A DNA stretch of 46,357 nucleotides from a virus. Taxonomy: Duplodnaviria; Caudoviricetes. Under the pieces are notes generated by a model. The model did no database searches, was not told where the DNA came from, and saw only the letters and a program-made list of their open reading frames with translations. Shown one piece after another: positions 7,352 through 46,357 of the stretch; the stretch's first letter is position 1, and each line of letters opens with the position of its first letter. Position numbers and translations under genes: made by a program. The stretch covers positions 1 to 46,357 of the IMG/VR virus record IMGVR_UViG_3300033067_001263; one strand, written 5' to 3'.

Positions 7352-7509
7352 GAGAAGTTGAATTTCAGATGCTGGTGGAGATATTTACGGTATGGGCGCG
7401 GGATAATGATGTAAAGGCAAGCGATGAAAAATGGAATGATCTAACCCGCAGGCTTAAAAATTACTATGACTATAGTGTGGAACAATTAGATGCAGCAAGT
7501 AATCACTAA
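7348..7509 (+). CDS. Small hypothetical protein (53 aa, MREVEFQ...)
   Basis: Hand-translated; SD GGAGG and ATGA coupling to the previous gene. Confidence 0.55.
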   Translation: MREVEFQMLVEIFTVWARDNDVKASDEKWNDLTRRLKNYYDYSVEQLDAASNH

Positions 7510-14850: not shown

Positions 14851-15345
14851 ATGCCAAGAACTCATAAATCGTTAAAAGAACGGTTCGATACAAAATACCA
14901 TGTTTTAGAAAATGGTTGCTGGCAATGGACTGCTAATATCTCTACTAATGGATATGGGCAGGTTACGAAAGCAGGAAAAAGTTATCGTGCGCATAGAATT
15001 GCTTACGAGTCTTACGTGGGAGCAATTCCAGAGGGCATGGTAGTTTGTCATAAATGCGATAATAAACTTTGCGTAAATCCTGAGCATTTATTTATAGGCA
15101 CTCAAGCTGAAAATATGCAGGATATGACTCGCAAAGGCAGAGGGCGTACTGGAGAGAAAAACGGGAAAGCTTTTTTGTCTGATGAGCAAGTTCGAGAAAT
15201 TAGGGAAAAATTTGCTAATGGATCTACTCCAAAGCAATTGAATGAAGAGTATAATTTGGGCAAGGGTTCTATTTATAATATTATTAACAATAGAACACGC
15301 GTACAAAAAGCAAACAACAAGGAGGTGTTATTTTGCCATTTGTAA
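14851..15345 (+). CDS. Free-standing HNH homing endonuclease
   Basis: GCWQWT...GYG...AHRIAY...[16 protein letters not shown]...N, followed by a C-terminal HTH. Confidence 0.92.
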
Positions 15346-16138: not shown

Positions 16139-16843
16139 ATGCCAAAAACTTATCTAGATGTAATAAATGACGCACGAGATGAGATCACACCTGGCACAAT
16201 ACCGCTTAGTCGCTTAACTGATACTGACGCTGAAGTAAAAAGATCTAGAAGTTGTATTCAGCGGGCTTTACGCGATCTTTTAGCGCGTCATCTAGCAATT
16301 CCATCAGAAAGCAAAATTGGGACCGTAACAACGACCACAGGCAATGCTCTGCTTACTAATTTGATAAGTGATCCTTGGGATACCAAGATGGTCATGGAAA
16401 TGCACTATCTAGATACGACACAAACGCCTAACGTAAGAAGGCGTGTTCTTCCAATTACTGAAGCTCAATCAAAAGATTTACTGCTTTTGACTTATACGGA
16501 TACGACTCCAAGATATTATTATCAAAAAGGCAATAATCTATATCTAGTACCGGTTCCACAAGCGGCCTATTCGATTGATATTAGATACAACAGAACAGTT
16601 CCGTTGATTGCAATTGAAGATTTGACAACTCAGCTTGATCTTGATAATGAAGGAATTCTTGTTTTGACTGATCTTACAAAAGCTCATCTATTGCAGGGGA
16701 AAGATCCTGAATGGGAAAAAATTCTCGGAATGGCACTGAAGAGTGTTGATGTTTACTATGAAAGATTGAACTATGGACAAAAGAAACAAGGGGTCAATGG
16801 TACAATGAAAGTACAGATTAATCGAGCAGACTGGAGCTATTGA
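16139..16843 (+). CDS. Head-tail adaptor (tail tubular protein A-like)
   Basis: TYLDVIN...PRYYY...LYLVPVP...YSIDIRY pattern of podoviral adaptors; synteny. Confidence 0.75.
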   Translation: MPKTYLDVINDARDEITPGTIPLSRLTDTDAEVKRSRSCIQRALRDLLARHLAIPSESKIGTVTTTTGNALLTNLISDPWDTKMVMEMHYLDTTQTPNVRRRVLPITEAQSKDLLLLTYTDTTPRYYYQKGNNLYLVPVPQAAYSIDIRYNRTVPLIAIEDLTTQLDLDNEGILVLTDLTKAHLLQGKDPEWEKILGMALKSVDVYYERLNYGQKKQGVNGTMKVQINRADWSY

Positions 16844-16844
16844 T

Positions 16845-17483
16845 ATGGATTGGAATACTTTATTTGGTTATGGTGGTTTTGGCGGATATGATCCCTGGGC
16901 TGGAATAATGCAATCAATGGGCGGTTATGGCGGCTACGGAGGCTATGGAGGCTATGGAGGCTATGGAGGCTATGGAGGCTATGGCGGCATGGGCGGTTTT
17001 GGTGGCTATAATCCTTGGGGAATGTATGGTGGCATGGGCGGCTACGGAGGCTATGGAGGTTACGGAGGCTATGGCGGCATGGGCGGAGACGGTACGCCGC
17101 TTGAGTCGATACTAGAAGGCATGTTTAAAAAATATTTCCCTGATGCAACTCCTGGAGAGGCTGTTACAGATACGTCTTCTGGTGGTGCGAGTAATGAGGC
17201 AGCGACGGGGACCGATGCAACAACTACAACAACGGATACCACAGCAGATACGACGACTAAGACTAAGCCTGATTTTAGGTTTGGTAAGGACTATGGTAGT
17301 AAATATCTTGAAACAGGCGAATGGGGCGAAAAAGGATTGGCACAAATGCAGGAAGCTGGCTATAAAGATGAAGCTGATTTTATGGCAAGTGAAATGGGGC
17401 AATCCCTTCAAAAGAAACGTGATCAGATCGCAAGCAATACTAACAGAATAGATACGACCCGCAGAACATCAACAAGACGATAA
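16845..17483 (+). CDS. Gly/Tyr/Met low-complexity (GGY repeat) protein
   Basis: N-terminal ~80 aa of (GGY)n/GGM, a T-rich linker and a small globular C-terminus; tightly packed against both neighbours. Confidence 0.8.
   Translation: MDWNTLFGYGGFGGYDPWAGIMQSMGGYGGYGGYGGYGGYGGYGGYGGMGGFGGYNPWGMYGGMGGYGGYGGYGGYGGMGGDGTPLESILEGMFKKYFPDATPGEAVTDTSSGGASNEAATGTDATTTTTDTTADTTTKTKPDFRFGKDYGSKYLETGEWGEKGLAQMQEAGYKDEADFMASEMGQSLQKKRDQIASNTNRIDTTRRTSTRR
16920..17087 (+). repeat. 9-bp coding tandem repeats (GGAGGCTAT-type) encoding GGY
   Basis: Direct reading; two blocks separated by FGGYNPWGMY. Confidence 0.9.
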
Positions 17484-20989: not shown

Positions 20990-23900
20990 GTGGCGTATAA
21001 CTTAGGCGCAGCAGTAAACGATATTCGCTATACCGGAAGCAATGCCCTTGAGGGAATAGTACGTTCTGTTCCAGATTTTTTTTATGGACTAGATGAAACT
21101 GCACAAAAAGCAGTAGCAGGAGTTTACGCAGGGCTTGCTTCTTCACCGGCTTTACTGACTCCAGAGCAGGATTATGAGGCAAGATATCTTGAAGCCTTTC
21201 GAAATGATTTAGCAAGGCTTGAGCAGTTTGATAAACAGAATAAGACTCTGGGCGCGATTATTTCTGAGAATGTTGGAAATCCTTTGGCGAATTTATCGAA
21301 CAGTTTTTTTCGAGCATTAGAAGGTGATGAGAGCAAGATTACAAATGCGGCCGTCAAGAAAGCAATCGCTCAGACGGTTGGAGGTTTTATTGCTCCCGCT
21401 CCTGGTGCGGCAGCATTACAAAAAGCAGGAAAGCTTGGAGGCTCATTACTTAGTCAGATGGGCAAAGGCGCAATTATTGGCACTGGCTTTGGGGCAGCTA
21501 CTGGTGGTACGGCTGAAGACTGGAAAGGATATGCAGGCAATGTACTGTTCGGCACAGCAGCAGGTACAGCAGCTCCAGCGTTAGGTGCTGGACTCAATCG
21601 TACTTGGGACTATGCAAAGGGCACTGCTAATCGTGTTCAGGCGAATGTTCAGAGAATGACACAGGATCGCAATACGCAAGCGATGCGAGAAATTAAAGCC
21701 GCGCAAGATGGGATTATTCAAAAGAAAAATGCGCAAAAGCAAGCGCAAAAACCAGTTCAAGCTGAAAGTCAAGCTCCTGCAACAAAGACGCAAGTACAAA
21801 GAAATCCGCAAAAGATTGCGCAAGAAGCATGGGATCAGGAATTTGCAAAGATAGAAAAAGAGACGGGGCGTAAGCTCACATCTGAACAAAAAGAGCGTTT
21901 CAAGGCAGATGCAGAGAAGAAGCTAGTTAAGCAATCTCAGACCCAAGCTCGCAGACAAATTGCATCTCAGAAATTAAAAGAGTTAAAAGCGCAGACAGAA
22001 TTTGAAGGACTGCAAGTCCGTAAAGCTGGTGTTGAACAGCAACTTGGGCGTATTAAAGAGTTCTTGAAAGAAAGACCTAAAAAGCTTTTGCCATCAGAAA
22101 AACAAAAAGCAATTAGGAATAAGATATTGCGGGCTCAACAACTGCAACGAAAGTTACAAGAAGCACAAAAACAAGCGGAAGTATTATCCAAAGATCAAAT
22201 CCAAGAATTGACAGGGTATCGTTATGAGGAACAAGATTTGCCCGCTTTAGTGGAGTATTTGCAAGCAGAAAAATCTCAAATGGAAAGTCAATTGAAAGAA
22301 TTGAATTTTAAATATGAACGAGCAAAATTAGAACATGGGACTATTGATGAATTAGTTGGAGACAAGGACTTAGATACAGGCTCTTTGGCTGATGCTGAAA
22401 CTAAGGCTCTAGCTAATACTTATGGTACTCGTGCTGATATCCAGAAAGTAACTAAAATGATTGAAGCTAAACAAGCTGAAATCAAGAAAGTACAAGATGT
22501 AATTAAGGCTGGGATTACTAAAAGAAGCCCACAACGCCCCCCAGTTGCAGATATTGAAGCGTCTAAAAAGATGCAACAAGAATTGCGAGTGGAGATTTTA
22601 AAGTCTAAGCAAAACATTTCAAAATTACTTGAAGAGAAAGCTAAGGTTAGGCCAAAAGTTGAAGAGGGGTATGATGGTAGCACTGAAAGTGCAATTGCTG
22701 AAGTTTTGAAGGACTTAAAGAAGAAGGGTCAAAGGATTGATCGTAAATCTTTTTTAGGTTTTGCAAAGGGCGCTGATCCTAATCTTGCAAGAACTTATTT
22801 GACGGCTAAGCCAAAAGGAAAGGATAATCGTGCTTATTATACGCCTCCTGAAAATGCAAAAACTTTAGATCAAATAAATGAACAAGTAACAGAACAATTA
22901 GGAAGAGAGGGAGACTCAACGCACGGTTGGCAGGAAGAGATCGTTGATTTTATGCAACGCTATCCTAATACTCCAAAAGAATTCTATAAAGATCGTGCTG
23001 TTCCGCAATATGAAAGAACTCTTGGCGAGATAGATCAAGCGATTGCAAAAGAAGGCGAGAATATAGCCGGGATTGAGCAAACAATTCAGGATATTGGGGT
23101 AGATCAACCGCAATTATCAAGGCAAGAGATTGCAGTTAAAAACTTTCTGGAAAAGCAAAATAAAGCTCTAAATCGTGCAAGAAAAATTCAAAGAACAAAA
23201 GTTAATAAAGATGCACGTAGGTCTCTTGGAGTCGAAGATCCAACTCCAGATGCATTGAAATCTGAAGTAGCAAGACTGGAAGCTGAGCGACAAGCAATCG
23301 CTGAAGAAGAAGCGACATTAAGTAATAGATTGATAAAAGAAGCTCAGGACTTCAGTGTTAAGGCAACTAGCTCAGAACAGTTCTTGAAAGATCAGGGATT
23401 GTCTTATGCTGGATTTGATAGTGATGGGAAGATGACGGTTGCGTCTTTTGATGCAATGCCTGCATCTCCTAGAACATATCAATTTAGAAAAAATGGCACA
23501 GATTTTTCAATTAAAATTAGTCAAGAAGGTAAACCGGTAGAAATAAAAAGAGATCCAACTCCGGTTGAGAAAAAATGGGAAGATGCTCAGAATGGTGTTC
23601 ATACACAGATAGATAGGTTGTTTGGACTGGCTGATGAGCCTCCGATCATAACAAAAGAAAATACAAAAGCAGAGGCTCCTGTCTCTGATAAATCAAAACC
23701 AATCGAAAACAATAGCTGGAAACTTCCTGCAAAGAGTGGCACGAGAGAGTACATGCAACCAATCCAGAATGTAGTAGATGAAATTTCGCCTAATCTGGGC
23801 AATAAAGTAGCACAGCTTGAAGCGGACATTGTTAATGATCCGGTTATTCTATTTAAGGAATTAGCAGATACTGTTGGATATCGCCAGAAGGGTGAATTTG

Positions 23901-26134
23901 ATCCAAAGAAATTCCATGCTTATCTCAAAGGTATTTTTGGTGATAGTAGAAAAAGTTATGTTAATGCGGATACTCAGCCTGAAAATTTAACTCCTGAGCA
24001 AACTGATCTGTTGATTAAGATGCAGCCTTTCTTTAACAAGCATAAAGCGGAGCTAGAAGCGGCTGGAATTGATTTTACTCAATTCGTTAATGGACTGTAT
24101 GCACCAAGAGAACGCAAATATAATGTTTGGTATAACAAGCAGCCCAAATACAAAGATGGCACAGGTAGTTCACAAGAAGAGATTGTTCAGCGCATCAAAG
24201 ATACTGAAGGCGATTATTTCGATAGTGATATGGTGATGGACGAGCTTGCTAAGGAAAGAAAGTATAAAGAAGTTCCAGATGATGCTCTAGATGAATATCA
24301 CGAGGGTGCGGACTCGATCTTTATAAGAATTAAAAAAATTGCAAAGCAAAGAGCATTAAACAAGTTTTTTGGCAATGAATTAAAGCAAGGACAAGGACAC
24401 AGGGTCTTAATTGAAAAGATGCTTGATGAAGAAGGGATTACGGGTGCTAATCGCTATGACGCACAATTAGCTCTTGAAAGACTTTTTGATAAGACTCCTT
24501 ATACTGATAATCCATTTATGAATGGTTTGAATTGGCTAAGATATGCCTTTACTCTGGGAAGACCATCAACTGCAGTCAAGCAGCCGATCTTAGGCGGAGT
24601 GAGATATTCAGCAAGATTTGGGATTGAGAATTTTCTTAAAGGATTGAACGCATCTAATGATCCTCGTTTTCAGGCGCACATGGCAAGTATCATGGGCGAT
24701 ATCGAGAAGCAGGATATTGGCAGCAAGCTCAAATTAATGGACAAGGCCGCAACTGGATTGTTTCGTTTATCAAACCAGAAGGAAGCCTCTCTGGGAATGA
24801 GTTCTGCGTATCATGCGTTAGTTGAGAATTCAGCAAAAGCAACGCAAGGGAAAGCACCAAAGTCTTTTACTGATTATATGCAAAGAAGATACGGAGATGA
24901 TGCTCAAGCAAAAATCCAAAAATTGGCAGCACAAAAAGGCAAGAAATATACTGGATTAGATAAAGATATTCTTGATGCGACGTTTACTTATGCAAGAGAT
25001 AGAGGCTCGTTAGCAATGACAAAGGCTGATAAAGTTTCAGCATCTCTTGATAAGAATAATTTGCTTAAGCGCGAATTCTATCGCTTATTGACTTATGGAT
25101 TTAAGAATACAAATACAATGGCAGATATGACCTTTGGAGAAATTAAGCGAGGCAATCCAGCAGAAGGTTTCAAGAATATGCTTACTCAAGTAATGATCCC
25201 AGTTGGAATTGAGGGATTGATGGTTGATGCAATAATGAGAACTGGCTCTGGCGCTCAGTCTTGGGCAGCAAGTGGGGATATTGAAGATTTTGGCAGAGGC
25301 TATGAGCGTGGTGGGATAGCTAGAACTGTAGAGAAGGTTAAAGACTCATATCTAGGAATTGTTCCTTTCTTGAGCAGATATAGTTTAGATAAGCTTTTTG
25401 ATCCGCAAGCTCAAGGTGAAGCAATAATGGATATGGTATTTAAGGGTACTGGCGGTATTGTGAAGACAGCAACGCAATCTGGGCAAGCAACAATCGCTGG
25501 ATTAGAGGCAAGCAATCGAGAGAACAGAGCGCCTGATTTTACTGGTGCGTTTCAGCCTGATCTTAATCCTGCTCTTAAAAAGCTTCCTCCGCAAGTATTA
25601 ACTGAGACTTATTACAATATCGTTGATCCTTTGCTGAGAGGTGATAGCGCTCAGGTTGTATTAGACGAAGCAGAGATTTTGAAGCGCGAAGAAGGTGAAA
25701 CTCCGCTTGGTAAATTAACTAAGCAACAAGAGCTTATTAAAAAGCATAGAAACGCTGGGGTTCCAGAAGCGTTACTTGGAACTAAGAAAGGTCAGGCGAT
25801 GTATAGTAAGCTGACCAATAAGAAGTATCAAGAGCAATTAAAGATAACGCATACTTTTGATACTGCAGAAATTGCTCGTGGGTATGAATTAACTAGAGAT
25901 ATGACTCCAATGTCTCCTGAAGAAAGAATGGCGCATTTCAAGACTTTATCAACGAAAGAGCAAAAGGCTTTTTATGGAGCGATGCTTGACAAGGCAACAA
26001 AGGCTTATAGAGATGGTAAGATAGAAAGAGCTACATACGAAAGGGTTAAAGCGACTGCAATAAGAGAAGGGTTTCCAACTGGAATACAAAGTATGCAAAA
26101 AGCAATCAATAAGGTGGTAGGCAGTGGTCAGTAA
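20990..26134 (+). CDS. Large internal virion / ejection protein (1714 aa)
   Basis: Gly/Ala membrane-insertion segments near the N-terminus, long coiled coils, position after the nozzle. No enzymatic motif recognised. Confidence 0.7.
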   Translation: MAYNLGAAVNDIRYTGSNALEGIVRSVPDFFYGLDETAQKAVAGVYAGLASSPALLTPEQDYEARYLEAFRNDLARLEQFDKQNKTLGAIISENVGNPLANLSNSFFRALEGDESKITNAAVKKAIAQTVGGFIAPAPGAAALQKAGKLGGSLLSQMGKGAIIGTGFGAATGGTAEDWKGYAGNVLFGTAAGTAAPALGAGLNRTWDYAKGTANRVQANVQRMTQDRNTQAMREIKAAQDGIIQKKNAQKQAQKPVQAESQAPATKTQVQRNPQKIAQEAWDQEFAKIEKETGRKLTSEQKERFKADAEKKLVKQSQTQARRQIASQKLKELKAQTEFEGLQVRKAGVEQQLGRIKEFLKERPKKLLPSEKQKAIRNKILRAQQLQRKLQEAQKQAEVLSKDQIQELTGYRYEEQDLPALVEYLQAEKSQMESQLKELNFKYERAKLEHGTIDELVGDKDLDTGSLADAETKALANTYGTRADIQKVTKMIEAKQAEIKKVQDVIKAGITKRSPQRPPVADIEASKKMQQELRVEILKSKQNISKLLEEKAKVRPKVEEGYDGSTESAIAEVLKDLKKKGQRIDRKSFLGFAKGADPNLARTYLTAKPKGKDNRAYYTPPENAKTLDQINEQVTEQLGREGDSTHGWQEEIVDFMQRYPNTPKEFYKDRAVPQYERTLGEIDQAIAKEGENIAGIEQTIQDIGVDQPQLSRQEIAVKNFLEKQNKALNRARKIQRTKVNKDARRSLGVEDPTPDALKSEVARLEAERQAIAEEEATLSNRLIKEAQDFSVKATSSEQFLKDQGLSYAGFDSDGKMTVASFDAMPASPRTYQFRKNGTDFSIKISQEGKPVEIKRDPTPVEKKWEDAQNGVHTQIDRLFGLADEPPIITKENTKAEAPVSDKSKPIENNSWKLPAKSGTREYMQPIQNVVDEISPNLGNKVAQLEADIVNDPVILFKELADTVGYRQKGEFDPKKFHAYLKGIFGDSRKSYVNADTQPENLTPEQTDLLIKMQPFFNKHKAELEAAGIDFTQFVNGLYAPRERKYNVWYNKQPKYKDGTGSSQEEIVQRIKDTEGDYFDSDMVMDELAKERKYKEVPDDALDEYHEGADSIFIRIKKIAKQRALNKFFGNELKQGQGHRVLIEKMLDEEGITGANRYDAQLALERLFDKTPYTDNPFMNGLNWLRYAFTLGRPSTAVKQPILGGVRYSARFGIENFLKGLNASNDPRFQAHMASIMGDIEKQDIGSKLKLMDKAATGLFRLSNQKEASLGMSSAYHALVENSAKATQGKAPKSFTDYMQRRYGDDAQAKIQKLAAQKGKKYTGLDKDILDATFTYARDRGSLAMTKADKVSASLDKNNLLKREFYRLLTYGFKNTNTMADMTFGEIKRGNPAEGFKNMLTQVMIPVGIEGLMVDAIMRTGSGAQSWAASGDIEDFGRGYERGGIARTVEKVKDSYLGIVPFLSRYSLDKLFDPQAQGEAIMDMVFKGTGGIVKTATQSGQATIAGLEASNRENRAPDFTGAFQPDLNPALKKLPPQVLTETYYNIVDPLLRGDSAQVVLDEAEILKREEGETPLGKLTKQQELIKKHRNAGVPEALLGTKKGQAMYSKLTNKKYQEQLKITHTFDTAEIARGYELTRDMTPMSPEERMAHFKTLSTKEQKAFYGAMLDKATKAYRDGKIERATYERVKATAIREGFPTGIQSMQKAINKVVGSGQ

Positions 26135-26894
26135 ATCGGATATTGTTGATAATATACCTGCACTAAGCAATTTGAATACTGTTGCAGATGGTGATACGGT
26201 TTCAGCGAATATTGAAAATATCAATAATCAGACATTGATGAACAAGGTAATTCTTCTTTATCAATTTGTTCGTGATGATGCAGTTGGTTTAGAAGATGAT
26301 CAAACTTTTGATGGATTAATTACTTTTGATGGCGGTATTAAGGTTGGTGATATTGGGCCGCTTACTACTAATGGCAATATAATTCTAAGCCTTGGTACTG
26401 GAGCAATCTATATTGGCAGTGCTACTGCGGCAAACCAGCTTCTCAAGAAAGCTGATATTCAAACATTGATTAATTCTGCTTCTGGTGCAGTAGTAATGAT
26501 TGGAGCGACTAGTGGAGTTGATGGAGTAGCAGGGCTTGTTCCAATCCCAGTTGCGGGCAAAAATCTTTCATATCTTCGAGGAGATGCAACTTGGGTTGAT
26601 CCGTTTTCTTGGACTCAAAAGACGAGTAACTTTACTACTGCAGCAAGTGGCAAATATAAATGCACTTCTGGAGTTACAGGTATAACATTACATGCTCCAG
26701 CAAGTGGTGCAGAGGAATTTGTAATTAAGCCTGAGATTGGTAATAGTTTTCAAACAAATCCAATCACACTAACAGGTGCTATGAATGTAGGCGGAGTTGC
26801 AGCGGCAAGCTTTCCACTTAATCAAAATGTAGTTTATAGGTTCACGACGAATGGAACCGATTATGATGTATCAGCGGAGCAATTAGCGAGGTAA
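26124..26894 (+). CDS. Tail fibre / fibre anchor protein (no signal peptide)
   Basis: GAT...G.AGLVP.P.AG...YLRGDATW motif common in phage fibres. Confidence 0.7.
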   Translation: MVSKSDIVDNIPALSNLNTVADGDTVSANIENINNQTLMNKVILLYQFVRDDAVGLEDDQTFDGLITFDGGIKVGDIGPLTTNGNIILSLGTGAIYIGSATAANQLLKKADIQTLINSASGAVVMIGATSGVDGVAGLVPIPVAGKNLSYLRGDATWVDPFSWTQKTSNFTTAASGKYKCTSGVTGITLHAPASGAEEFVIKPEIGNSFQTNPITLTGAMNVGGVAAASFPLNQNVVYRFTTNGTDYDVSAEQLAR

Positions 26895-26896
26895 AT

Positions 26897-27349
26897 ATGA
26901 AACGAATAATATTAGCAATACTGTTAGGAATAGGGTTATCGGCACAAGCGTTTACGTTCTTTGGCGGAGATGTGCCAGCAGGAGCGGGAAAGCTTCAGTT
27001 TGGTGCTGAAGTTGGATTAACGAATGGCACTCCTGCAACAGTTCTTTCTATAACCAATAATGATGGAATTCTTTGGGGATTTGCGATGAGATGGGTTTCT
27101 GGTGGCACTGGTGCTGGTGAGACACTCGTTAAGGTTAATAGAATTACAGTCGATGGGGGAAGTCCTGATATCTATAATGGTAATCTAGCTGTATATTCAG
27201 CCTCTGCTACTTATGGTGATAATCATTTAAGACAGCCTTTTTCTTTCGCGCCTGTTAGGTTTACTAGCTCGATAACTGTAACTTTTATAGAGTCCAATAG
27301 TTCTAATGACGCAAAAACGTATCTAACACCAATTTGGTCAAAATATTGA
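26897..27349 (+). CDS. Signal-peptide-bearing beta protein in the tail block
   Basis: MKRIILAILLGIGLSAQA|F has basic n-region, hydrophobic h-region and an AxA site. Confidence 0.7.
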   Translation: MKRIILAILLGIGLSAQAFTFFGGDVPAGAGKLQFGAEVGLTNGTPATVLSITNNDGILWGFAMRWVSGGTGAGETLVKVNRITVDGGSPDIYNGNLAVYSASATYGDNHLRQPFSFAPVRFTSSITVTFIESNSSNDAKTYLTPIWSKY

Positions 27350-27369
27350 TTTGAGGTTATAATAAAAAT

Positions 27370-28119
27370 ATGAGTAACGATACAGGTATTATTTATTCAG
27401 ATGTGAACTCCAATGTGATGTTTACTGTTGATGCGCAGAATAGGCGCATTGGGATTAATACTGCATTTCCTACCGTTCCATTTGAGGTAACTGGGAATGC
27501 AAAGATTACAGGCAATCTTGAAGTAACTGGAGATCTTGCTGTTGATGATTTAGCGATTGATGATGCAGTAATTGATCAAGCAACTATTACGACTTTAATT
27601 ACAAGCAGTGCTATTACGAATAGTGCGAATGTTGGGACTGCTAATACTGGAGTTACTGCAGTTGAACGCGGAGATGGTCGTCAGCATCAAACGGTTTTAA
27701 CTTTTACTAATCTTGCAGTTGGTTCTGCAACTGGCGCGGCAAATTTAGCTTTCGGTAAATTACTTTATACCTTACCTGCAGGGGTTCAAAATTATAAGGT
27801 TGCATATATGAATGTAACTTTGACTGGTGCGGCAGGAATTGTAGCAGATACTCCAGATGTTGGGATTGGTACAGTTATTGGCTCTGGTGCGGTTGCGGTA
27901 CTTGGTGGAACTGCAACTTTTGAAGATATCATCACTGGTCAAACATCTGGTGCGATTGATGGTACTAATGCGATTATTGCAAATGATAATACTGTTGATT
28001 TGTTTAGGAATACAGCAGATGCAAAAACAGTTCACTTAAATGTTGCTGATGGTTGGGCAGCAGCAGGAGCAGTTACTGCCACAGGCACGATTGTTCTAGA
28101 ATGGTCCACTATAGTATAA
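27370..28119 (+). CDS. Virion structural / fibre-like protein
   Basis: RIGINT..P...FEVTG motif, T/A/G-rich beta composition. Confidence 0.65.
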   Translation: MSNDTGIIYSDVNSNVMFTVDAQNRRIGINTAFPTVPFEVTGNAKITGNLEVTGDLAVDDLAIDDAVIDQATITTLITSSAITNSANVGTANTGVTAVERGDGRQHQTVLTFTNLAVGSATGAANLAFGKLLYTLPAGVQNYKVAYMNVTLTGAAGIVADTPDVGIGTVIGSGAVAVLGGTATFEDIITGQTSGAIDGTNAIIANDNTVDLFRNTADAKTVHLNVADGWAAAGAVTATGTIVLEWSTIV

Positions 28120-28131
28120 GGAGATAAATAA

Positions 28132-28296
28132 ATGTTAGGAAAGAAAAATAACGCAAAACCAGTACCTCGCGGTAAGCCTATTAAAGGTGGTAAATCGCCA
28201 TCTGTTGGAGTTCGTCCAACAGAGATGGAAGGTAGATTTGGCAAACCGGGTATTGGAAACGCAAAACCAGCGCCTCGTGGTAAAGCAAAGCGCTAA
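28132..28296 (+). CDS. Small very basic K/R/G/P protein (54 aa, MLGKKNNAKPVPRGK...AKPAPRGKAKR)
   Basis: Hand-translated, below the ORF-track cutoff; SD AAGGAG; internal repeat NAKPxPRGK. Confidence 0.7.
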   Translation: MLGKKNNAKPVPRGKPIKGGKSPSVGVRPTEMEGRFGKPGIGNAKPAPRGKAKR

Positions 28297-28301
28297 AGGT
28301 T

Positions 28302-28342
28302 GGAGTAGTTCGGCACTGTTAGCGGCAGTGCCTGAACTCTCT
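28302..28342 (+). other. Intergenic ~18-bp bulged hairpin without U-tract
   Basis: GGAG.AGTTC-GGCACTGTT agc GGCAGTGCC.GAACT-CTCT. Confidence 0.6.
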
Positions 28343-28359
28343 GCTAAATGGAGGAAATT

Positions 28360-28608
28360 ATGGCAGAAAGAAATTACAAGAAAGAATATCAAAATTATCA
28401 AGGCAAACCGGAGCAAATAAAAAATCGTGCAAAAAGAAATGCAGCGAGAGCAAAAATGGAAAAAGCAGGAAAAGTTCGTAAAGGTGATGGAAAAGATGTT
28501 GATCATGTTAAAGGTGTTGGAGCCGGCAACGGGAAAAGCAATCTAAGGGTTCAGCCTAAATCAACAAATAGATCATTCCCACGAAATAAAAATGCAGGCA
28601 AAAGATAG
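28360..28608 (+). CDS. Small HNH-like nuclease-fold protein
   Basis: RNYKKEY...GDGKDVDH...NLRV...NRS, a widespread podoviral small HNH family; start after GGAGG. Confidence 0.8.
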   Translation: MAERNYKKEYQNYQGKPEQIKNRAKRNAARAKMEKAGKVRKGDGKDVDHVKGVGAGNGKSNLRVQPKSTNRSFPRNKNAGKR

Positions 28609-28615
28609 GTGAATT

Positions 28616-29014
28616 ATGGCAGACGCACATGTAGAAACTGAAAGTTTATGGCTACCAACTGATCAAACGTTGGCTACTGGTATTAGGGTTACAACGATAA
28701 CAGTAACGACAACGCATCGCTCTTTGGATTATTTGCTAAATGCGGCTGTTAGCGGAAGAACTTCTTTACCTGGCCGCAGAAAGCTGATCTTACGTAACTT
28801 AGACTCTACCAATCCTTTCTATATTACAGAAAGCGCTACTCAGACAGACACAGATGGCTGGGACGTACAGGAAGGCGCAGATATAAGTTTTGATGCAAGT
28901 CCGACGTTTACAGGGAACGTCGCAAGAATTAGCGATGTAGATAAAGGTGGCGGTGGCTTTTATCTAGTTTGCGACTCTGGAACGATTTCAGTAAAAGTAT
29001 TAGAGGCAAAATAA
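28616..29014 (+). CDS. Putative virion structural protein
   Basis: Beta-rich 132 aa (RRKLILRN...FYI...VKVLE). Confidence 0.55.
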   Translation: MADAHVETESLWLPTDQTLATGIRVTTITVTTTHRSLDYLLNAAVSGRTSLPGRRKLILRNLDSTNPFYITESATQTDTDGWDVQEGADISFDASPTFTGNVARISDVDKGGGGFYLVCDSGTISVKVLEAK

Positions 29015-29916
29015 TGAATATAGAAACCACAAAAAGAGATCCCTTTAAAGGTCAAAAAGGTGAGCCTGGTAAACCTGGGCTTGGCATTCAATCCTGGGAA
29101 CTCAAGGGTCATGGAATTAGAATAATTCTTACTGATGGCAGAGAAATTATTTTTGAAGATCTTCGTGGACCGCAGGGCGAGGCAGGTAAAGCTCCAGCGA
29201 TAGAAGATATTGCTCAAGTCGTTCTTAATGCAATTAAGCTTCCTAAGGACGGAGTTGATGGCAAGGACGGAATAAGCCCAGATCTAGAAAAGATTATCGC
29301 GGAAGTTTTAAAAAGAATTGAAATTCCTGCTCCTAAAGATGGAATAAGTCCAGATCCAGAAGATATTATTGCGGAGGTTCTAAAAAGAATTGAAATTCCT
29401 GCTCCCAAAGATGGTAAGAATGGAACGGACGGAATAAGTCCAGATCCAGAAAAGATTATCGCAGAGGTTCTAAAAAGAATTGAAATTCCCGCTCCTAAAG
29501 ATGGAACTGATGGTAAAGATGGAACTGATGGTAAAGACGGCAAAGATGCGCCATTTTCTACTTGGGTTAAAAACTATGATGTGCAAGGCAGTACAAATAT
29601 AGAAAATCCTTCTAATGTAATTTTCAAAATAGACTTTGATCAAGATACTGCTTATGGTGTAACTGCAAAAATTATTGCTCGTGGACCAAGTAAGCTAAAT
29701 TTCTTTTATGCAGAGAAGCATGGTTTGTTCTATAAAGATCCGAAAGGCTCAGTAGTTCGTGCGGATAGTGATGTTGCTGTATTTAGTCCGCGCAGATCTA
29801 ATCCTGCATTGAATTTTGAAATTCAATCAACGCTGACTGGAATACAGGTAATCGCTTTTGGACTTGAAGATGAGGAGATTTCATGGAAAGGCGAATTATC
29901 AATTGCATCTACTTAA
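29014..29916 (+). CDS. Collagen-like repeat protein
   Basis: Gxy runs (GQKGEPGKPG, DGKDG) and three 24-aa repeats; ATG 29014 is coupled to the upstream TAA. Confidence 0.75.
   Translation: MNIETTKRDPFKGQKGEPGKPGLGIQSWELKGHGIRIILTDGREIIFEDLRGPQGEAGKAPAIEDIAQVVLNAIKLPKDGVDGKDGISPDLEKIIAEVLKRIEIPAPKDGISPDPEDIIAEVLKRIEIPAPKDGKNGTDGISPDPEKIIAEVLKRIEIPAPKDGTDGKDGTDGKDGKDAPFSTWVKNYDVQGSTNIENPSNVIFKIDFDQDTAYGVTAKIIARGPSKLNFFYAEKHGLFYKDPKGSVVRADSDVAVFSPRRSNPALNFEIQSTLTGIQVIAFGLEDEEISWKGELSIAST
29266..29499 (+). repeat. Three 72-bp coding repeats (DGISPDxExIIAEVLKRIEIPAPK)
   Basis: 29266-29337, 29338-29409 and 29428-29499. Confidence 0.9.
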
Positions 29917-32351
29917 TACTTTTAGTATTTTTAGGACTTGATGCAAAAGCAAATTTAATAGATACCAATAAGGTTTCGATACAAAATTTATATCCGAAAG
30001 GCTTCACAAGTCAGTGCTTGAAAATGAATGGCTCTGCTGTTACTTGGGGTTCTTGCGGCTCTGGTGGTGGTGGTGGACTTAGTAATGTAGTCATCAACAA
30101 TGGTGATCTTTTTACTACGATTACCAATGGTACTCTGGCGACTAATGGTACAACGCTAATCAGGGTTTCTAACGGAGCAATTTTTAATGGATCTCTTTTT
30201 ACTACTTATTTCAATACTAAAAGCACTACTAACCTAAGCGAAGGTACAAATCTTTATTATACTGGTGCGAGAGTTAATGGAGATATTAGCGACACTATTG
30301 GCGTAACTACCCAAGCTTACGATGCAGACTTGTCAGCGGTTGCAGCTCTTTCTGGGACTGGATTTGCTGTTCGTACAGCATCTAATACTTGGACAACAAG
30401 GAATATTTCTTTTGATAATGGTATAACACTAACTAACAATGGTGGAGTTGCAGGCAATCCAAGAATAACTCAGGATCTAAGACTTAGCACATATACAAAC
30501 GATAGCAACTGGAGCGCAGAAGCTAATGGTGGCACAATGCGCTCAATACAAATCACCACTGATAATGGTATTACCTCTAGTGTAACTGGCCTAAGCGGTA
30601 ATGGCGGAGCTTTGAGATTGTCTAATAATTTAGCTTTGAGTACATATACCAATGATGCAGGTTTTTTAACTGGTAATCAGACTATAACTTTATCAAGTGA
30701 TGTTACTGGGTCAGGCACAACAGGAATTACAACAACGATTGCTAATAGTGCTATTACTACTGGCAAGATTAGCAATGGTGCGGTTGGCACTGTAGATTTG
30801 GCTAACAGCTCTATTACCTCAGGCAAAATTCTTAATGGTACAATCCTCGTGGCTGACATTGATAACGGCACTCACGGCTATTACATGAAGTCAGTGAACG
30901 GTTCTGTAGTATGGGCAACTGCTGGTAGCTCTGATGCAGCGACTCTAGACGGATTAGACTCAACACAATTTTTAAGATCTGATACTTCTGATAACTATAC
31001 TTCTGGGACTTTGACATTAGATGCTGGTACTACTTTTGATGTCAATTCTACGGCTGTAAGTATTGCTGACACTAATATCTCCTTTGACGGTGCTTCCACT
31101 ACCTTTACTGGTACTGGTGCTATGACTATTACTCCTGGTGCTGGTACTAACTTCTTGGTACAGCAATCACAAAATGGTACAACACAGTTTAAAAACAGTT
31201 CTGGATCAGTTATAGCTATTTTAAACTCTACTAGTTCTTATGGTAATCCTAGTGTTACCTCTATCTTTGGGGACTCTGTAATTAAGTTTCAAGAAAACGG
31301 CAGGACTCAATGGGCAATAGGATTCAAAGCCAATGGTGATACATTCAGGATTGATGATAGCGGACTGTTTGCTAATAACCGTTTTGTAATGAAGAATGAC
31401 GGCAATGTAGGTATTGGTATTGCAACCCCAGTACATAAACTTTCGGTAGCTGGCACTATTAATGCTACTGGTAATATAACTGGTGTGAACCTTTCTGGTA
31501 CTAATACTGGAGATCAGACGATAACCCTTACTGGTGATGTAACTGGTTCAGGCACTGGATCTTTTGCTGCGACTATTGTCAATAATGCGGTAACCTCAGG
31601 AAAGATTAGCAATGGTGCTGTTACTTCGGCCGATCTAGCCTCTAGTGCTGTTGGGACTTCTAATATTGCGGCCAATGCGGTTACATCAGCTAAGATTTCA
31701 AATGGCACTATTATTGGTGCTGACCTGGCAAATGCTGATTTTGGTTCATTCACTGTATCTTCTGGAACTGCCACTATAGATGCCAACTCGATAACATCAG
31801 CAATGATAACTAATGCGACCGTAGCTACAGCAGACATTGCATCATCAATAACTTTGACTACGCCTAATATTGGTGCTGCCACTGGAACAAGCTTAACTCT
31901 CACGGGGAAAATGGTTGCTGGTACAAATGTCAACGGCACAACGTTCAATGCTACAAAGCTCTTAGCAAGTGGCACTTTCAATGGCGTGAGCTTAAATGTG
32001 AGCAATGGTGCAGCTTTTTTATCAGTTAAAAATATTGGCAACGGTGGCACGACAGAGGCTTTTGATTTTACTAAAGCAAATAAGTTTATTATGGCTTTAA
32101 ACGCATCTACTTGTGCTATTAGTGCAAGCACTGACCCAAGAGGCGCAACGTCATTGCAGTTAATGATACAGCAAAGGGCAGGATCACAGACGGTAACATG
32201 GACTGCTTGCGGCTCTGCTAGTGGCTTCTGTTGGCCTGGCGGTACAGCACCAACGCTGACAACATCAGCTAACGCAATAGACGTAATTAGCTGCTTGTAT
32301 AACCCTACAAAAGATAGGTACTATTGCAATTCGAGTTTAGATTTTAGATAA
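29883..32351 (+). CDS. Long tail-fibre-like protein with N-terminal signal peptide
   Basis: Fibre motifs NLSEGTNLYYT, QAYDADL, TLDGLDSTQFLRSD, GNVGIG, ITLTGDVTGSG, VTSAKI repeats and WPGGTAPTLT. N-terminus MERRIINCIYLILLVFLGLDAKA|N. Confidence 0.8.
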   Translation: MERRIINCIYLILLVFLGLDAKANLIDTNKVSIQNLYPKGFTSQCLKMNGSAVTWGSCGSGGGGGLSNVVINNGDLFTTITNGTLATNGTTLIRVSNGAIFNGSLFTTYFNTKSTTNLSEGTNLYYTGARVNGDISDTIGVTTQAYDADLSAVAALSGTGFAVRTASNTWTTRNISFDNGITLTNNGGVAGNPRITQDLRLSTYTNDSNWSAEANGGTMRSIQITTDNGITSSVTGLSGNGGALRLSNNLALSTYTNDAGFLTGNQTITLSSDVTGSGTTGITTTIANSAITTGKISNGAVGTVDLANSSITSGKILNGTILVADIDNGTHGYYMKSVNGSVVWATAGSSDAATLDGLDSTQFLRSDTSDNYTSGTLTLDAGTTFDVNSTAVSIADTNISFDGASTTFTGTGAMTITPGAGTNFLVQQSQNGTTQFKNSSGSVIAILNSTSSYGNPSVTSIFGDSVIKFQENGRTQWAIGFKANGDTFRIDDSGLFANNRFVMKNDGNVGIGIATPVHKLSVAGTINATGNITGVNLSGTNTGDQTITLTGDVTGSGTGSFAATIVNNAVTSGKISNGAVTSADLASSAVGTSNIAANAVTSAKISNGTIIGADLANADFGSFTVSSGTATIDANSITSAMITNATVATADIASSITLTTPNIGAATGTSLTLTGKMVAGTNVNGTTFNATKLLASGTFNGVSLNVSNGAAFLSVKNIGNGGTTEAFDFTKANKFIMALNASTCAISASTDPRGATSLQLMIQQRAGSQTVTWTACGSASGFCWPGGTAPTLTTSANAIDVISCLYNPTKDRYYCNSSLDFR

Positions 32352-32360
32352 GGAGAAATT

Positions 32361-32780
32361 ATGAATAAAGCAGAATTAGTAGAAAACTTAAAATCAAGAG
32401 TGGTGGACATTATCAGCGAGAGTGGAGCTAGATCACTCAATGCAAACATAGATGGCAAGCGAGCTGCGGAGTATAGCTATCTTGTCAGATATGCTAAAGG
32501 ATTAAGTTTAAGTGGTGAGGAATTAGTCAATATCGTTGTGTATAACGAGGGGCAAGAAAATGAAACTGCTTACTACGCACACGGAGCTAATGAAACATTG
32601 CCTGGTGGGAAGAACGACTACCAAATTATGATCGAATTAGCCAATCAAATTGATCCTAATGTAATTGTTTTAGATGAGATTGCTGATGGCGTTTGGAAGA
32701 TACAAAACTCAGACGGTTCTATTAAGCTAGTAACACTTAACAAGGATAAAACAGGCTTTATTGCAATCGCAAGCAAATGA
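32361..32780 (+). CDS. Hypothetical protein, possible fibre chaperone
   Basis: 139-aa ORF with SD AAGGAG directly after the fibre gene. Confidence 0.6.
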   Translation: MNKAELVENLKSRVVDIISESGARSLNANIDGKRAAEYSYLVRYAKGLSLSGEELVNIVVYNEGQENETAYYAHGANETLPGGKNDYQIMIELANQIDPNVIVLDEIADGVWKIQNSDGSIKLVTLNKDKTGFIAIASK

Positions 32781-33904
32781 GAAGATGGATAGCACTATTA
32801 CTAGTTTTATTTATTTTGCCAGCAAAAGCTGCTTGGTATAACAACTCATGGCAGAAACGAATTAAAGTAACGGTTAGGCATGCAAACGTAGATGCGGATT
32901 TAACTAATTTCCCAGTTTACCTTAACCTAGATGATTTTCCAGATAGTTTTTTTGATGATTGTTTAGCAAATGGAGCTGATCTTAGGATAACCAGTTCAAA
33001 CGAAACAACTGAATTAGCAAGGGAAGTAGTATGGTTGAGTAAGACAAGCAATCAAGGTGAGCTTTATTTCAAGGCTCCGAATCTATACAATTCTACTAAC
33101 GCAGATTTTTATTTATACTACAAAAACCCATCAGCAACTCAGTATGGAGAGGGTGATACTTACGGAGCTGAGAATGTTTGGACTAATGGGTATAAAGGTG
33201 TTTGGCATCTACAAGAATCTACTGGCACTACATTAACTGATTCAACCGCGTCTGATGCAGACATGACTACTAGTGGTTCTCCGACTTTATCTGCTACAGG
33301 GAAGATTGGTAAGGGTGTAGATTTTGAAGCGAGTTCGTCTCAAAGAGCTACAAGCACTGATGCTGATCTACAGATAACTGGAGATCACACGATACAAGCG
33401 TGGGGCAACAACGAATCATTTTCAAACAGCTCGGCAGGTACTACTATTGCATCTTGGGGTGAAAATGCTGCTGGCAAGCGTAGAATGATAATTGCTGATG
33501 GGGCTAACTTTGCTCCACCTCGATTGCGTTATAGTTCTATGGGTGGTGATTTTGGTTCAGGGACTACCAGTCTAAGTACATCAACTTGGTATTTCTATGT
33601 AGGTACTGTTGCGAGTGGTTCTGGTACTGTATATGTGAATAAAACTTCTAATGGTACGGGCTCACCTACACTTAATGCTTGGTCTTCTTTTAATGCAGTA
33701 ATTGCATCAACGCCAGCAGCGACTGGTGAATATTATGACGGTATTCTAGATGAAGTAAGATTTTCAAACGTAGCAAGAACTTCTACTTGGCTCTCAACGG
33801 AGTATAACAACGTAAACAGTTCTTCTACTTTCTATAGTCTCGCTGCTGCAGAAGATGTACCAGAAACAGCCAGTGATGCGATATTTTACGGGGTTGAATT
33901 CTAA
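32777..33904 (+). CDS. DUF2341 + LamG/ConA-like lectin domain protein with signal peptide
   Basis: W...W.KR..TV, LTNFPV, GADLRIT, YLYY.NP, GVWHL.E, GKIG and DGILDEVRFSN motifs. N-terminus MRRWIALLLVLFILPAKA|A. Confidence 0.8.
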   Translation: MRRWIALLLVLFILPAKAAWYNNSWQKRIKVTVRHANVDADLTNFPVYLNLDDFPDSFFDDCLANGADLRITSSNETTELAREVVWLSKTSNQGELYFKAPNLYNSTNADFYLYYKNPSATQYGEGDTYGAENVWTNGYKGVWHLQESTGTTLTDSTASDADMTTSGSPTLSATGKIGKGVDFEASSSQRATSTDADLQITGDHTIQAWGNNESFSNSSAGTTIASWGENAAGKRRMIIADGANFAPPRLRYSSMGGDFGSGTTSLSTSTWYFYVGTVASGSGTVYVNKTSNGTGSPTLNAWSSFNAVIASTPAATGEYYDGILDEVRFSNVARTSTWLSTEYNNVNSSSTFYSLAAAEDVPETASDAIFYGVEF

Positions 33905-33910
33905 GGTATA

Positions 33911-34432
33911 ATGCAAAAATTAGCTTTAATCGCAATTATAATCACCATTGCCACAGTTCATGACGCAGGCGCAAGACCAATTAGGCACTACGTCAAATTT
34001 ACAGGATTTGATCCTGTTCTAGCCGAGCAAATTAAAATTGAATTGGACTCTAAGATGGCGAGATATTTTGATTTCAAGTATGTTGATAATCTTGCAGAGA
34101 CAGGCGGTATAAATATTATTTACACTGATGATTTTCCTAAATGCTTTAATACTGTTTTTGGTTCAATTTATAACAATAATTATGAACGATTGCCCTTGAT
34201 GCAAGTTGTTATCAACAGCTCTTGCATAGAGCCTTATCAAGAAGTCAATAAAGTTAATGCTTTCTTTAATGCGATTAATCACGAAGTTAGATGTCATGCG
34301 GCTTCTGGTATTAAAGAACATATGCCATCTAACGGCAAGATAGATCTATGCGATCCAAAGCTTAGTACCGCAAAGATATATTTTACTAAGCGAGATTTTG
34401 AATGGATCAAAAGCAATCTAGACGAAATATAA
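33911..34432 (+). CDS. Secreted zincin/matrixin-like metallopeptidase candidate
   Basis: Signal MQKLALIAIIITIATVHDAGA|R; HEVRCHAASGIKEH; C-terminal FT.RD...I helix. Confidence 0.55.
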   Translation: MQKLALIAIIITIATVHDAGARPIRHYVKFTGFDPVLAEQIKIELDSKMARYFDFKYVDNLAETGGINIIYTDDFPKCFNTVFGSIYNNNYERLPLMQVVINSSCIEPYQEVNKVNAFFNAINHEVRCHAASGIKEHMPSNGKIDLCDPKLSTAKIYFTKRDFEWIKSNLDEI

Positions 34433-34936
34433 AGAGTCATTTACTCTGCCGAATTTACGAAGTTTTTCTTTGATAAACTCTCTCTGGCTGCCTGAAAAAT
34501 ATAGATCCGCTTCTCTTGCATGGCGAGCTAATACTGGTGGGTTCTTGCGGTCCCATTTAAGGAACTCGTCTATAATCAATAGATCATTTGGATCAAGGTT
34601 AATTCTCATACTAATCCCAGTTCTGGAGCCGTTTCTATTAACTAATGCTTGATGTCCGAGGTTGTATAAAAAGCTGCAAAGCGCATCAAATTGATTTTGG
34701 TTTAATTCTGATTTAATGTGGATAGAAATATCAGGATAAACAACTTTTTCAAGATAGTCTTCTAAGTATTCATAGGCTATTTGTTCAGTAATTGGGCTAT
34801 CTCCGATATTGACTTTTCTACCATCTGGATAAAGAGTGGTTCCGATGCCAATGGTAGTTACTCCACGGTTGCAGTAATAGGGGGTTAGACTTAAACCTTC
34901 TTGGTCTGCAAGGAATTTTTTGTTTTGCATTTGCAT
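34418..34936 (-). CDS. Endolysin, GH24 phage lysozyme
   Basis: EG......YYC..GVTTIGIG (E-x8-C-x5-T triad), LNQNQFDALCSF.YN.G, and R..READLY. Confidence 0.92.
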   Translation of the reverse strand: MQMQNKKFLADQEGLSLTPYYCNRGVTTIGIGTTLYPDGRKVNIGDSPITEQIAYEYLEDYLEKVVYPDISIHIKSELNQNQFDALCSFLYNLGHQALVNRNGSRTGISMRINLDPNDLLIIDEFLKWDRKNPPVLARHAREADLYFSGSQREFIKEKLRKFGRVNDSLYFV

Positions 34937-34938
34937 AA

Positions 34939-35262
34939 TTAATGTAATTGAAATCTAAGTTTAATAAGAAAGACTAGAAGTCCAAGCGCTCCTGCAAGTG
35001 TCCATTTCCAAATACTTAGTCGCTCTATTTTCTTTTCAGCACTGTCAAGTCTTTTTTCTATGTCCTCAAGTTCTGTAAGTTTGGTCAAGGCAATTGCAGT
35101 TTTATGGCTTTCCTCTTTGATCGCTTCTAGCGTATCGTTAATTCGCATTAGCCAATCTTTGAGGTCGGCATGATTTACGTGAAGCACGCTAATTCTTTCT
35201 GCAACTACTTGCATATCTGTTTCGAGCTTATTTACCCTTACATCAAGTGTACCATTATCCAT
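34939..35262 (-). CDS. Holin-like / XhlA-like coiled-coil protein with C-terminal TM
   Basis: Coiled coil followed by WKWTLAGALGLLVFLI; adjacent to the endolysin. Confidence 0.6.
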   Translation of the reverse strand: MDNGTLDVRVNKLETDMQVVAERISVLHVNHADLKDWLMRINDTLEAIKEESHKTAIALTKLTELEDIEKRLDSAEKKIERLSIWKWTLAGALGLLVFLIKLRFQLH

Positions 35263-35700: not shown

Positions 35701-36174
35701 ATGTTGGTTGGTGGAATTGACCCTGGACGTGAGGGTTTTCTTTGTGTTTTAAACGATAAAAATGAGCCGATTTTTTATAAATTGCCTTATGAAAACGGTG
35801 AGTTAAATATCCCAATTTTTGAGGCCGCAATCCAGTTGCTAGATGTTGTTTTTGTTGAGATGCCGATTGGTGGTGCTTTTGCTAATAAGAATACCCGGGA
35901 TCGGGATTTTGGAGAACTGCGTGGCTTGATTAGGCGCGTAAGTGCTTTTATAACGATAATGCCAATGGTGTGGAAGAAATACTTTGGACTTGATGGGGAT
36001 AAGAAAAAATCAATCGCATTGGCGCAAAAATTATATCCAGATGCAGATTTGAAATACTATACTCCCGGTGGTAAGCCTACCGATAAATTTGATGACAATA
36101 AAGCAGAGGCGTTACTTATTGCGCACTTTGGGAAGTCTAACGCGATGCTGCAGAGTAATAATTCTAGTCTCTAG
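35701..36174 (+). CDS. RuvC-like Holliday junction resolvase
   Basis: GIDPG, VFVE, P.VWKKY, and DD.KAEALLIA motifs. Confidence 0.85.
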   Translation: MLVGGIDPGREGFLCVLNDKNEPIFYKLPYENGELNIPIFEAAIQLLDVVFVEMPIGGAFANKNTRDRDFGELRGLIRRVSAFITIMPMVWKKYFGLDGDKKKSIALAQKLYPDADLKYYTPGGKPTDKFDDNKAEALLIAHFGKSNAMLQSNNSSL

Positions 36175-45400: not shown

Positions 45401-45838
45401 CTTGTCATGATGGCTCCTTTTAAAAATGACTATCATTGAGTCGTGCATACCGCACCTGTTGGTAACAAATTCCCCCTTGGTATTTTTGCCCTGGAACTTT
45501 ACTCGACCTTTTAGAAACCTAATCTCGTATTTATTCGGCAAAATAACTTCATGAAAAATTTTAGTACTGGTAGAAACAGGTAATAACATTACACATAATT
45601 TGCCTTTTAGACTTTCCTCTAATGCCTTTCTAATAAACTGTTCTTTTAATTTTCTAGAATATGGTGGATTGATAAAATTCCTCTCACCCCATTCTATTGC
45701 TAATCCATCAAAAGGTATCTCTCCGTCTATAGAGTATGGACATGGGTCAAAATCAAATTTAAATTCTTTATCTAAAATACTATAAAGCTCATTTGGCGTT
45801 TTCCAATTATCGGAATGTTTTAGACTTCTATTTTTCAA
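45398..45838 (-). CDS. Phage N6-adenine DNA methyltransferase (small Dam-like family)
   Basis: D.W.TP, F.FDPC, DGL..EW, FINPPYS, VMLLP..T.T..F, IRFLKGRVKF. Confidence 0.9.
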   Translation of the reverse strand: MKNRSLKHSDNWKTPNELYSILDKEFKFDFDPCPYSIDGEIPFDGLAIEWGERNFINPPYSRKLKEQFIRKALEESLKGKLCVMLLPVSTSTKIFHEVILPNKYEIRFLKGRVKFQGKNTKGEFVTNRCGMHDSMIVIFKRSHHDK

Positions 45839-46292
45839 TCAATCCCTCCTTCCACAAAAGATGCGCCAATTTTGCGGCTGCATTTTGGTCTGCTTCTAAG
45901 AAAGTTTTAACCCAAAGATGAATAAGATTGGCTGACAGATTAATCAAATAAAGCTCATCCTTAATAAAAGCATTTTCATTGTGGAGTTTAATTAGATCAC
46001 ACTCTATAGAAGTTCTATTGTGGGACTGTGAAAATAACCACTCTGCGCTCTTACTCAAAACAGCCAGGGTTTTGTCCAATCGATACGAAAGTACAGTATC
46101 TTCTTCGCATATAGACCAAAATTTATTAGGCGCTTCTACAAATGTATATTCTTTCTCTTCTGGGAAATCTATACTCCATGTAATTGTTTGCTTACACCAA
46201 GCACCATCCGCCTCAACCCCAGCCATAATGCCCGTCTCGGCTAGCATCTTCGATGCGTCTAGTGAGGTGCAGAGTTCTTTATTGGTTGTCAT
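45828..46292 (-). CDS. Hypothetical early protein, allele B of the hypervariable gene
   Basis: Same N-terminal, central and C-terminal blocks as 49..489, but different intervening segments. Confidence 0.8.
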   Translation of the reverse strand: MTTNKELCTSLDASKMLAETGIMAGVEADGAWCKQTITWSIDFPEEKEYTFVEAPNKFWSICEEDTVLSYRLDKTLAVLSKSAEWLFSQSHNRTSIECDLIKLHNENAFIKDELYLINLSANLIHLWVKTFLEADQNAAAKLAHLLWKEGLIEK

Positions 46293-46357
46293 GAACACAT
46301 CTCCCTTGTATGTTCCCAATCCTCTGTTATAGTTCTATAGCCAATAAAACTCATATT

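Follow-up and report, generated by a model that had tools for sequence, protein, structure and literature searches.

The 46,357-base window analysed here is a whole virus record (IMGVR_UViG_3300033067_001263, Caudoviricetes), classed as linear, and carries a block of receptor-binding genes in which four proteins begin with Sec-type signal sequences (leaders). Gene order runs from the head and tail genes, including a terminase at 7490, an SU10-type adaptor at 16139 and a tail protein at 17483, through a 1714-amino-acid (aa) open reading frame (ORF) at 20990, assigned as ejection-type from its size and position, to the fibre block and then to lysozyme on the opposite strand. Tube, sheath and integrase genes are absent among the 46 ORFs scanned, and we therefore read the virus as a lytic-looking short-tailed phage. 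The leaders are conserved, modular, clustered by locus and co-occur with cysteine pairs, and on these sequence grounds export by Sec is well supported.

The leader-bearing genes lie on the plus strand. They encode a 150-aa protein (26897-27349) with an 18-aa leader (26897-26950), a mature start FTFFGG and no cysteine; an 822-aa mosaic fibre (29883-32351) with a 23-aa leader (29883-29951); a 375-aa lectin-like protein (32777-33904) with a leader at 32777-32830, a short hydrophobic C-terminal tag and a single cysteine; and a 173-aa protein (33911-34432) with a 21-aa leader, four cysteines and an HExxxH motif. Within the first 35 residues, the best 10-residue hydropathy reaches 3.04, 3.24, 3.68 and 3.30 respectively, which places the four N-termini at ranks one to four of 69 ORFs, the next value being 2.58. 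Leaders were called by a heuristic rule, not by SignalP: a net positive n-region, nine uncharged residues with a mean hydropathy of at least 2.2, and small residues at positions -3 and -1. All four proteins show these Sec/signal peptidase I features of basic n-region, uncharged h-region and small -3/-1 residues. By comparison, the rule flags 5 of 1771 internal positions and, in other viral loci, 41 of 999 ORFs; in the window it picks out only one further ORF, a leader-like 82-aa frame at 2697-2945 on the minus strand. This fifth-ranking ORF lies outside the module among small early-type genes, and several small early ORFs with leaders are also present in the records of two related loci, L007 and L009.

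None of the four proteins contains a membrane anchor, a lipobox or a later transmembrane-like stretch (best 19-residue means 0.53-1.11), and the block proteins encoded at 26124, 27370, 29014 and 32361 are leaderless. The original prediction had located the four signal-type N-termini, had denied them to the neighbours at 26124, 27370 and 29014, and had seen neither lipobox nor C-terminal transmembrane segment in the 822-aa and 375-aa proteins; it holds on each of these points. The residues after the predicted cuts (F, N, A and R) depart from the Gln rule of Bacteroidota. Motifs resembling ribosome-binding sites precede 26897 (GAGGT), 29883 (GAGGAG) and 33911 (AAGGT), and the start of 32777 overlaps the stop of the preceding gene (ATGA). 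The fibre start at 29883 falls within the upstream collagen gene, by 34 bases. Locus L088 repeats this overlap together with leader and mature motif, and P0148 repeats leader, mature motif and the cysteines C45 and C58. A true start behind the hydrophobic segment had been named as a possible refutation; for the fibre, the stretch from the leader to the conserved mature motif contains no in-frame start.

The fibre gene occupies the receptor-binding slot, after the tail and ejection genes, and the earlier description of its product as fibre-like is borne out by similarity to phrog_892. Residues 708-822 (32004-32348, plus strand), termed the hub domain here, match annotated tail fibres of cultured phages in 22 records, and the domain is widespread, with 39,490 representatives at E ≤ 0.001. 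Against sequences in the PDB, the hub profile gave only chance matches. The fibre contains 29 N-x-S/T sequons, or 3.5 per 100 aa compared with 0-2.1 in other late proteins, an excess that may merely reflect its Asn, Ser and Thr content.

Retention of the signals in related phages had been proposed as a check, and the leaders of both fibre and lectin are kept in L007, L009 and L088. The three loci share the gene order collagen protein, leader-bearing fibre, leaderless linker of 130 aa and leader-bearing lectin, with one additional leaderless gene ahead of the fibre in L009; with the window included, the collagen gene precedes that of the exported fibre at each of the four loci. The L088 record has the entire head-tail module in common with the window at 24-42% identity, and its fibre carries the same mature N-terminal motif, whereas the head genes of L007 and L009 have no match to those of the window. 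Two further fibres with a near-identical C-terminus and unrelated N-termini are also leader-bearing. Leaders occur on distal fibre genes of other phages too (L067:5643-9213, L046:5534-9300, L198, L208 and L214), some of them with a long-tail-type gene order. The terminase search of five related records was empty, yet two of these hold ORFs read as terminases from size and position. Viral-contig searches returned no relatives of the 150-aa protein or of the capsid protein.

Leaders appear to be gained or lost gene by gene, for which we have three examples. A Gly-rich adhesin behind the anchor gene bears a leader in L009 (868-2148) and none in L088 (4008-5234); the two are 56% identical in their N-terminal part, and each follows a differing version of the anchor C-terminal domain. 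The slot of 26897 is thus filled by a leader-bearing Gly-rich protein in one relative and by a leaderless one in the other. The leaderless 249-aa fibre- or spike-like protein of the window (27370-28119, plus strand) has a leader-bearing homolog in L009 (35% over 174 aa, E 2e-10), and a distant homolog of the leaderless linker carries a leader in L067.

Both the DUF2341 and the LamG assignments previously made for the 375-aa protein were confirmed; it has no match in cultured phages. Of 119 homologs, 29 carry a hydrophobic leader ahead of the first conserved Trp, in the form leader plus AWY, 19 are leaderless with a MAWY-type start, 70 are unclassifiable and one is of another type. In the alignment the leaderless homologs start exactly at the predicted cut. 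This start of the mature domain at the cut is shown for the lectin only and is suggestive for 26897. The leaders also cluster by locus. A leader-bearing neighbour is present in all three other loci with a leader-bearing lectin, compared with 7 of 68 loci with a leaderless one (p = 0.002; 82 sources, 10 of them without a called lectin gene and excluded). Likewise, the gene following a leader-bearing hub gene bears a leader in 3 of 5 cases, and that following a leaderless hub gene in 0 of 61. Most cellular homologs of the lectin are from Patescibacteria (about 56 of 72 by record title); a leader or an N-terminal anchor is present in 24 of the 30 whose gene could be called, and the lectin domain thus tolerates export. 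The linker is encoded beside none of these 72 cellular homologs and the hub beside one. With linker and hub nearly absent there, the cassette is, by its sequence context, a phage arrangement.

Cysteines provide a further link to export. Those of the fibre are at positions 45, 58, 744, 776, 783, 804 and 815, and the predicted structure of the hub domain (predicted local distance difference test score 83.6) ends in a hairpin with strands 92-100 and 105-114, whose register would place C804 opposite C815 on the two strands. Of the leader-bearing proteins, 12 of 15 have the hairpin pair, compared with 3 of 124 among the leaderless ones (representatives at 50% identity; p = 3e-12), counted among the best 150 representatives, of which 144 had the C-terminal domain and five lacking a Met start were dropped. 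One of the three leaderless exceptions has an evident leader that the heuristic rule overlooked. Among the 89 locus proteins of a second set, near-copies included, the pair occurs in 8 of 10 leader-bearing and 0 of 79 leaderless proteins; under a relaxed rule, with three labels assigned by hand, the counts are 17 of 22 and 6 of 125. A rapidly built tree of poor resolution, with cysteines masked, requires 13 changes of the leader label, at least three of them forced by well-supported branches. That the pair tracks the leader supports folding in an oxidising compartment. The lectin, with one cysteine, the 150-aa protein, with none, and the odd count of the fibre indicate that disulfides are not the reason for all leaders.

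Structural comparison suggests, at middling scores, a known kind of domain. With VIA-align, seven matches to the hub model have Z scores of 6.0-8.1, after which scores drop to 4.1: the capsid-spike domain of Pa223 (Z 8.1, root-mean-square deviation (rmsd) 3.0, 98 residues aligned), a tailspike domain, a KP1 baseplate chain (Z 7.4, rmsd 3.2, 99 residues), the N-terminal part of CBA120 TSP4 (TSP4-N) twice (Z 6.8, rmsd 3.7, 101 residues), StcE(132-251) and one other. We read the hub as a predicted T4-gp10/XD-like beta-sandwich. In CBA120, the XD domains of TSP4-N are folded like T4 gp10 and serve in the binding of tailspikes (PMC8825819), and in KP32 a branching domain and a docking peptide are needed to place the second receptor-binding protein on virions (PMC13352976). 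A short MF-type N-terminal tag is found on the next gene in 43 of 66 viral loci that have a leaderless hub and an adjacent next gene. C-terminal tags like that of the lectin were recognised by eye in L170, L171, L174, L187 and L198; the tag pattern detected only two of them. Hub and tag may together form a docking system, as judged from sequence and predicted structure.

According to the textbook view, tailed-phage particles are completed in the cytoplasm. The block of the window is one late operon in which leaderless candidate anchors and adaptors (26124, 29014 and 32361) are interleaved with leader-bearing partners. The host Sec system and signal peptidase I would export and cut the fibre, the lectin and the 150-aa knob, and the fibre would fold in the periplasm with disulfides C45-C58 and C804-C815; we regard this step as strongly indicated. 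With moderate support, the gp10-like C-terminal hub of the fibre may bind the C-terminal tag of the lectin, and the exposed FFGG start of the 150-aa protein may form a second dock on the C-terminal domain of the 26124 product. The collagen protein is a candidate holder of the fibre N-terminus. Most tentatively, incorporation of the exported parts into the particle could follow holin action or come only after release. For the fibre, a position on the head instead of the tail is possible. We consider it quite likely that the exported parts join the particle at one or the other site, and a place on the tail reasonably probable. Our preferred reading, which we hold to be probable, is a receptor-binding system of the ordinary hub-and-docking-peptide kind, with the difference that its outer parts pass through export and are added at lysis. 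Its components are of familiar types, and the novelty lies in their route. Of the proposal, made with the original prediction, that distal parts are exported and dock at lysis, the export half is carried by the conserved, modular leaders and the cysteine pairs, and the docking half is something that we infer.

Several observations weigh against this reading. The signal calls are heuristic throughout. The mature N-termini of the exported fibres vary among relatives and reveal no conserved virion anchor, and the 139-aa linker is leaderless though its neighbours on both sides are exported. The fold comparison yields only medium scores (maximum Z 8.1): the gp10/XD-like matches, at Z 6.8-7.4 over about 100 residues, lie under the tool's bar of 8, and Foldseek places the same entries on top with none at E ≤ 0.001. 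Five leader-bearing hub fibres lack the cysteine pair, and the lectin and the 150-aa protein have one cysteine and none. The search profile was moreover seeded with three leader-bearing sequences that have the pair, and kin are not independent.

The well-supported export, together with the lack of a visible fibre anchor, would also fit proteins that never join the particle and instead act as soluble or surface decoys, covering receptors against re-adsorption of progeny to debris or against competing phages. The original prediction had offered decoys or adhesins as its alternative, which is possible and in our view weaker. The leaders and anchors of the cellular lectin homologs are in keeping with it, and a study of five leader-bearing prophage genes of unknown function reads them as possible modifiers of the host surface, not as virion parts (PMC10367356). 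However, leaderless orthologs occupy the same receptor-binding slots in other phages (L088:4008, L052, L069 and L174), the window phage is lytic-looking with no integrase among the ORFs scanned, and its four proteins lack a membrane anchor or lipobox. As decoys, they would leave the phage nothing but short leaderless stubs with which to bind its host, and the cassette neighbours are missing from the cellular loci apart from the single hub. We therefore regard decoys as rather unlikely.

Fibre, lectin and knob might alternatively be exported head decorations that bind finished capsids after lysis and aid adsorption, the tail being completed in the cytoplasm. Finished heads are known to be decorated late, as with T4 Hoc and Soc and lambda gpD; a capsid spike gives the hub its best structural match, and the 150-aa protein, a predicted beta-sandwich, is like small uncharacterised viral proteins of that fold. 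The Z score of the spike is nevertheless within 1 of those of tailspike and baseplate domains, the sequence matches of the hub are annotated tail fibres, and the hub gene of phage SS120-1 directly follows an internal virion protein, the position of a T7-type fibre, which makes head decoration improbable. Finally, the leaders could be non-functional relics from a bacterial pool of surface proteins, or translation could begin behind them: secreted DUF2341-LamG proteins are common in cells, and the fibre start lies inside the upstream gene. We hold this to be very improbable. The leaders are retained across phages with unrelated head modules, the fibre offers no alternative start ahead of its mature motif, the cysteine pair tracks the leader, and the GC content of the leader-bearing genes, overall and at third codon positions, is that of the other late genes.

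Tail fibres of cultured phages with the same C-terminal domain include CYYG_00030 of cyanophage SS120-1 (34% identity) and gp041 of Erwinia phage M7 (30%). In contrast to the window fibre, both have ordinary cytoplasmic N-termini without leaders and no hairpin cysteine pair. The gene after the SS120-1 hub fibre is annotated as a virion structural protein. Branched systems (KP32, K11, KP34 and CBA120 TSP4-N) resemble the window in a fibre with a predicted gp10/XD-like domain followed by a short-tagged partner and in distal adhesins that are interchangeable behind a fixed anchor; the sources, as far as consulted, do not describe export of their proteins. The window differs in its C-terminal hub with a cysteine pair, in leaders on both hub and partner, and in the C-terminal position of the lectin tag.

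Exported phage-like fibres are known from Bdellovibrio. Its MAT proteins are mosaic, with signal peptides and variable tips, and are described as cell-encoded and surface-displayed, with a conserved domain of about 130 aa after the leader (PMC10769870). By that description the window fibre differs in lying in a late operon of a phage genome and in a post-leader region that is not conserved among relatives. The virion proteins pIII and pVIII of filamentous phages have cleavable leaders, remain inner-membrane proteins and are assembled as the particle is extruded; unlike these, the window proteins have no transmembrane segment and come from a lytic-looking tailed phage.

A precedent among tailed phages comes from record annotations. 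Consecutive late genes of Cellulophaga phages phi10:1 (gp091-094) and phi18:3 (gp085-087) encode seven proteins, all with Sec-type leaders and all annotated as structural by tandem mass spectrometry, whereas six other phi10:1 proteins annotated by mass spectrometry and eight other phi18:3 structural proteins tested are leaderless. The phi10:1 proteins have no similarity to those of the window, and the precedent is thus an analogy. This lack of homology, seen where phi10:1 was compared, limits what the precedent can lend to our reading, as does the fact that mass spectrometry of purified particles may pick up co-purifying proteins. The Cellulophaga proteins further differ in having Gln after the cut, following the Bacteroidota rule, which none of the four window proteins has, and in having few cysteines. 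No paper discussing these leaders was found, and the literature searched, which left most subscription journals outside its coverage, contained no description of Sec export of tailed-phage fibres. The claim that no such system has been described therefore stands for that literature, yet the Cellulophaga annotations qualify it.

Many uncultured tailed phages may split virion assembly in this way, with anchors and linkers made in the cytoplasm, receptor-binding fibres and lectins accumulated and disulfide-locked in the periplasm, lysis arming the particle as the last assembly step, and lineages swapping single parts between the routes by gain or loss of leaders; we judge this slightly more plausible than not. 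If outer receptor-binding parts do mature in the periplasm, infectivity would hinge on host Sec, on disulfide systems and on the timing of lysis. Annotation would then wrongly class such fibres as secreted host factors, and misfolding would be likely on cytoplasmic expression. The locus supplies matched pairs, in which one adhesin is leader-bearing in L009 and leaderless in L088, and the cultured Cellulophaga phages permit a direct test.

The 173-aa protein had been taken for a co-exported peptidase acting as maturase, which our analysis does not bear out. The spacing of its HEVRCH motif differs from the matrixin motif HExxHxxGxxH, it has no Pfam match at E ≤ 1 (PF00413 included), and comparison with the matrixins of relatives gives an hhalign probability of 0.7%. 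Leader-bearing matrixins (PF00413) do occur in L007 (8199-8822) and L009 (11183-11800), on the minus strand among small early-type genes and outside the slot after the lectin. Neither locus has a gene of the 173-aa type in that slot, and the L088 record ends before it. Lacking both a peptidase family match and a place in the conserved cassette, the protein was rejected as maturase and is probably an exported accessory protein.

The remaining genes of the block are leaderless. Directly after the ejection-type protein, a 256-aa fibre (26124-26894, plus strand) is a candidate tail anchor by position only; its slot is also occupied in L088 and L009, and a search of viral and metagenome contigs with its C-terminal domain recovered only L009. 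A 132-aa protein (28616-29014, plus strand) is conserved in L088 at 62%, and the collagen-repeat protein with its C-terminal domain (29014-29916, plus strand) is a candidate adaptor. The 139-aa linker (32361-32780, plus strand) sits between fibre and lectin in all relatives; its model has a predicted template modelling score of 0.56 and no convincing fold match, which says nothing on novelty or function. On the minus strand, 34418-35262 encodes the lysozyme (PF00959) and a holin candidate of 107 aa with one C-terminal hydrophobic stretch.

An exact terminal repeat was considered and could not be established: the record ends carry two diverged copies of one gene with shared flanks (49-516 and 45828-46319, both on the minus strand), forming an imperfect repeat. 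A 4.2-kb contig with the label Caenarcaniphilales contains one homolog, which is too weak for a host assignment. An HNH endonuclease gene (14851-15345) directly follows the probable capsid gene and is missing there in the relative G006, and a basic 86-aa HNH-like ORF within the fibre block (28348-28608) is near-identical in L088. A RuvC-like resolvase (35701-36174) is the lone plus-strand gene among minus-strand genes.

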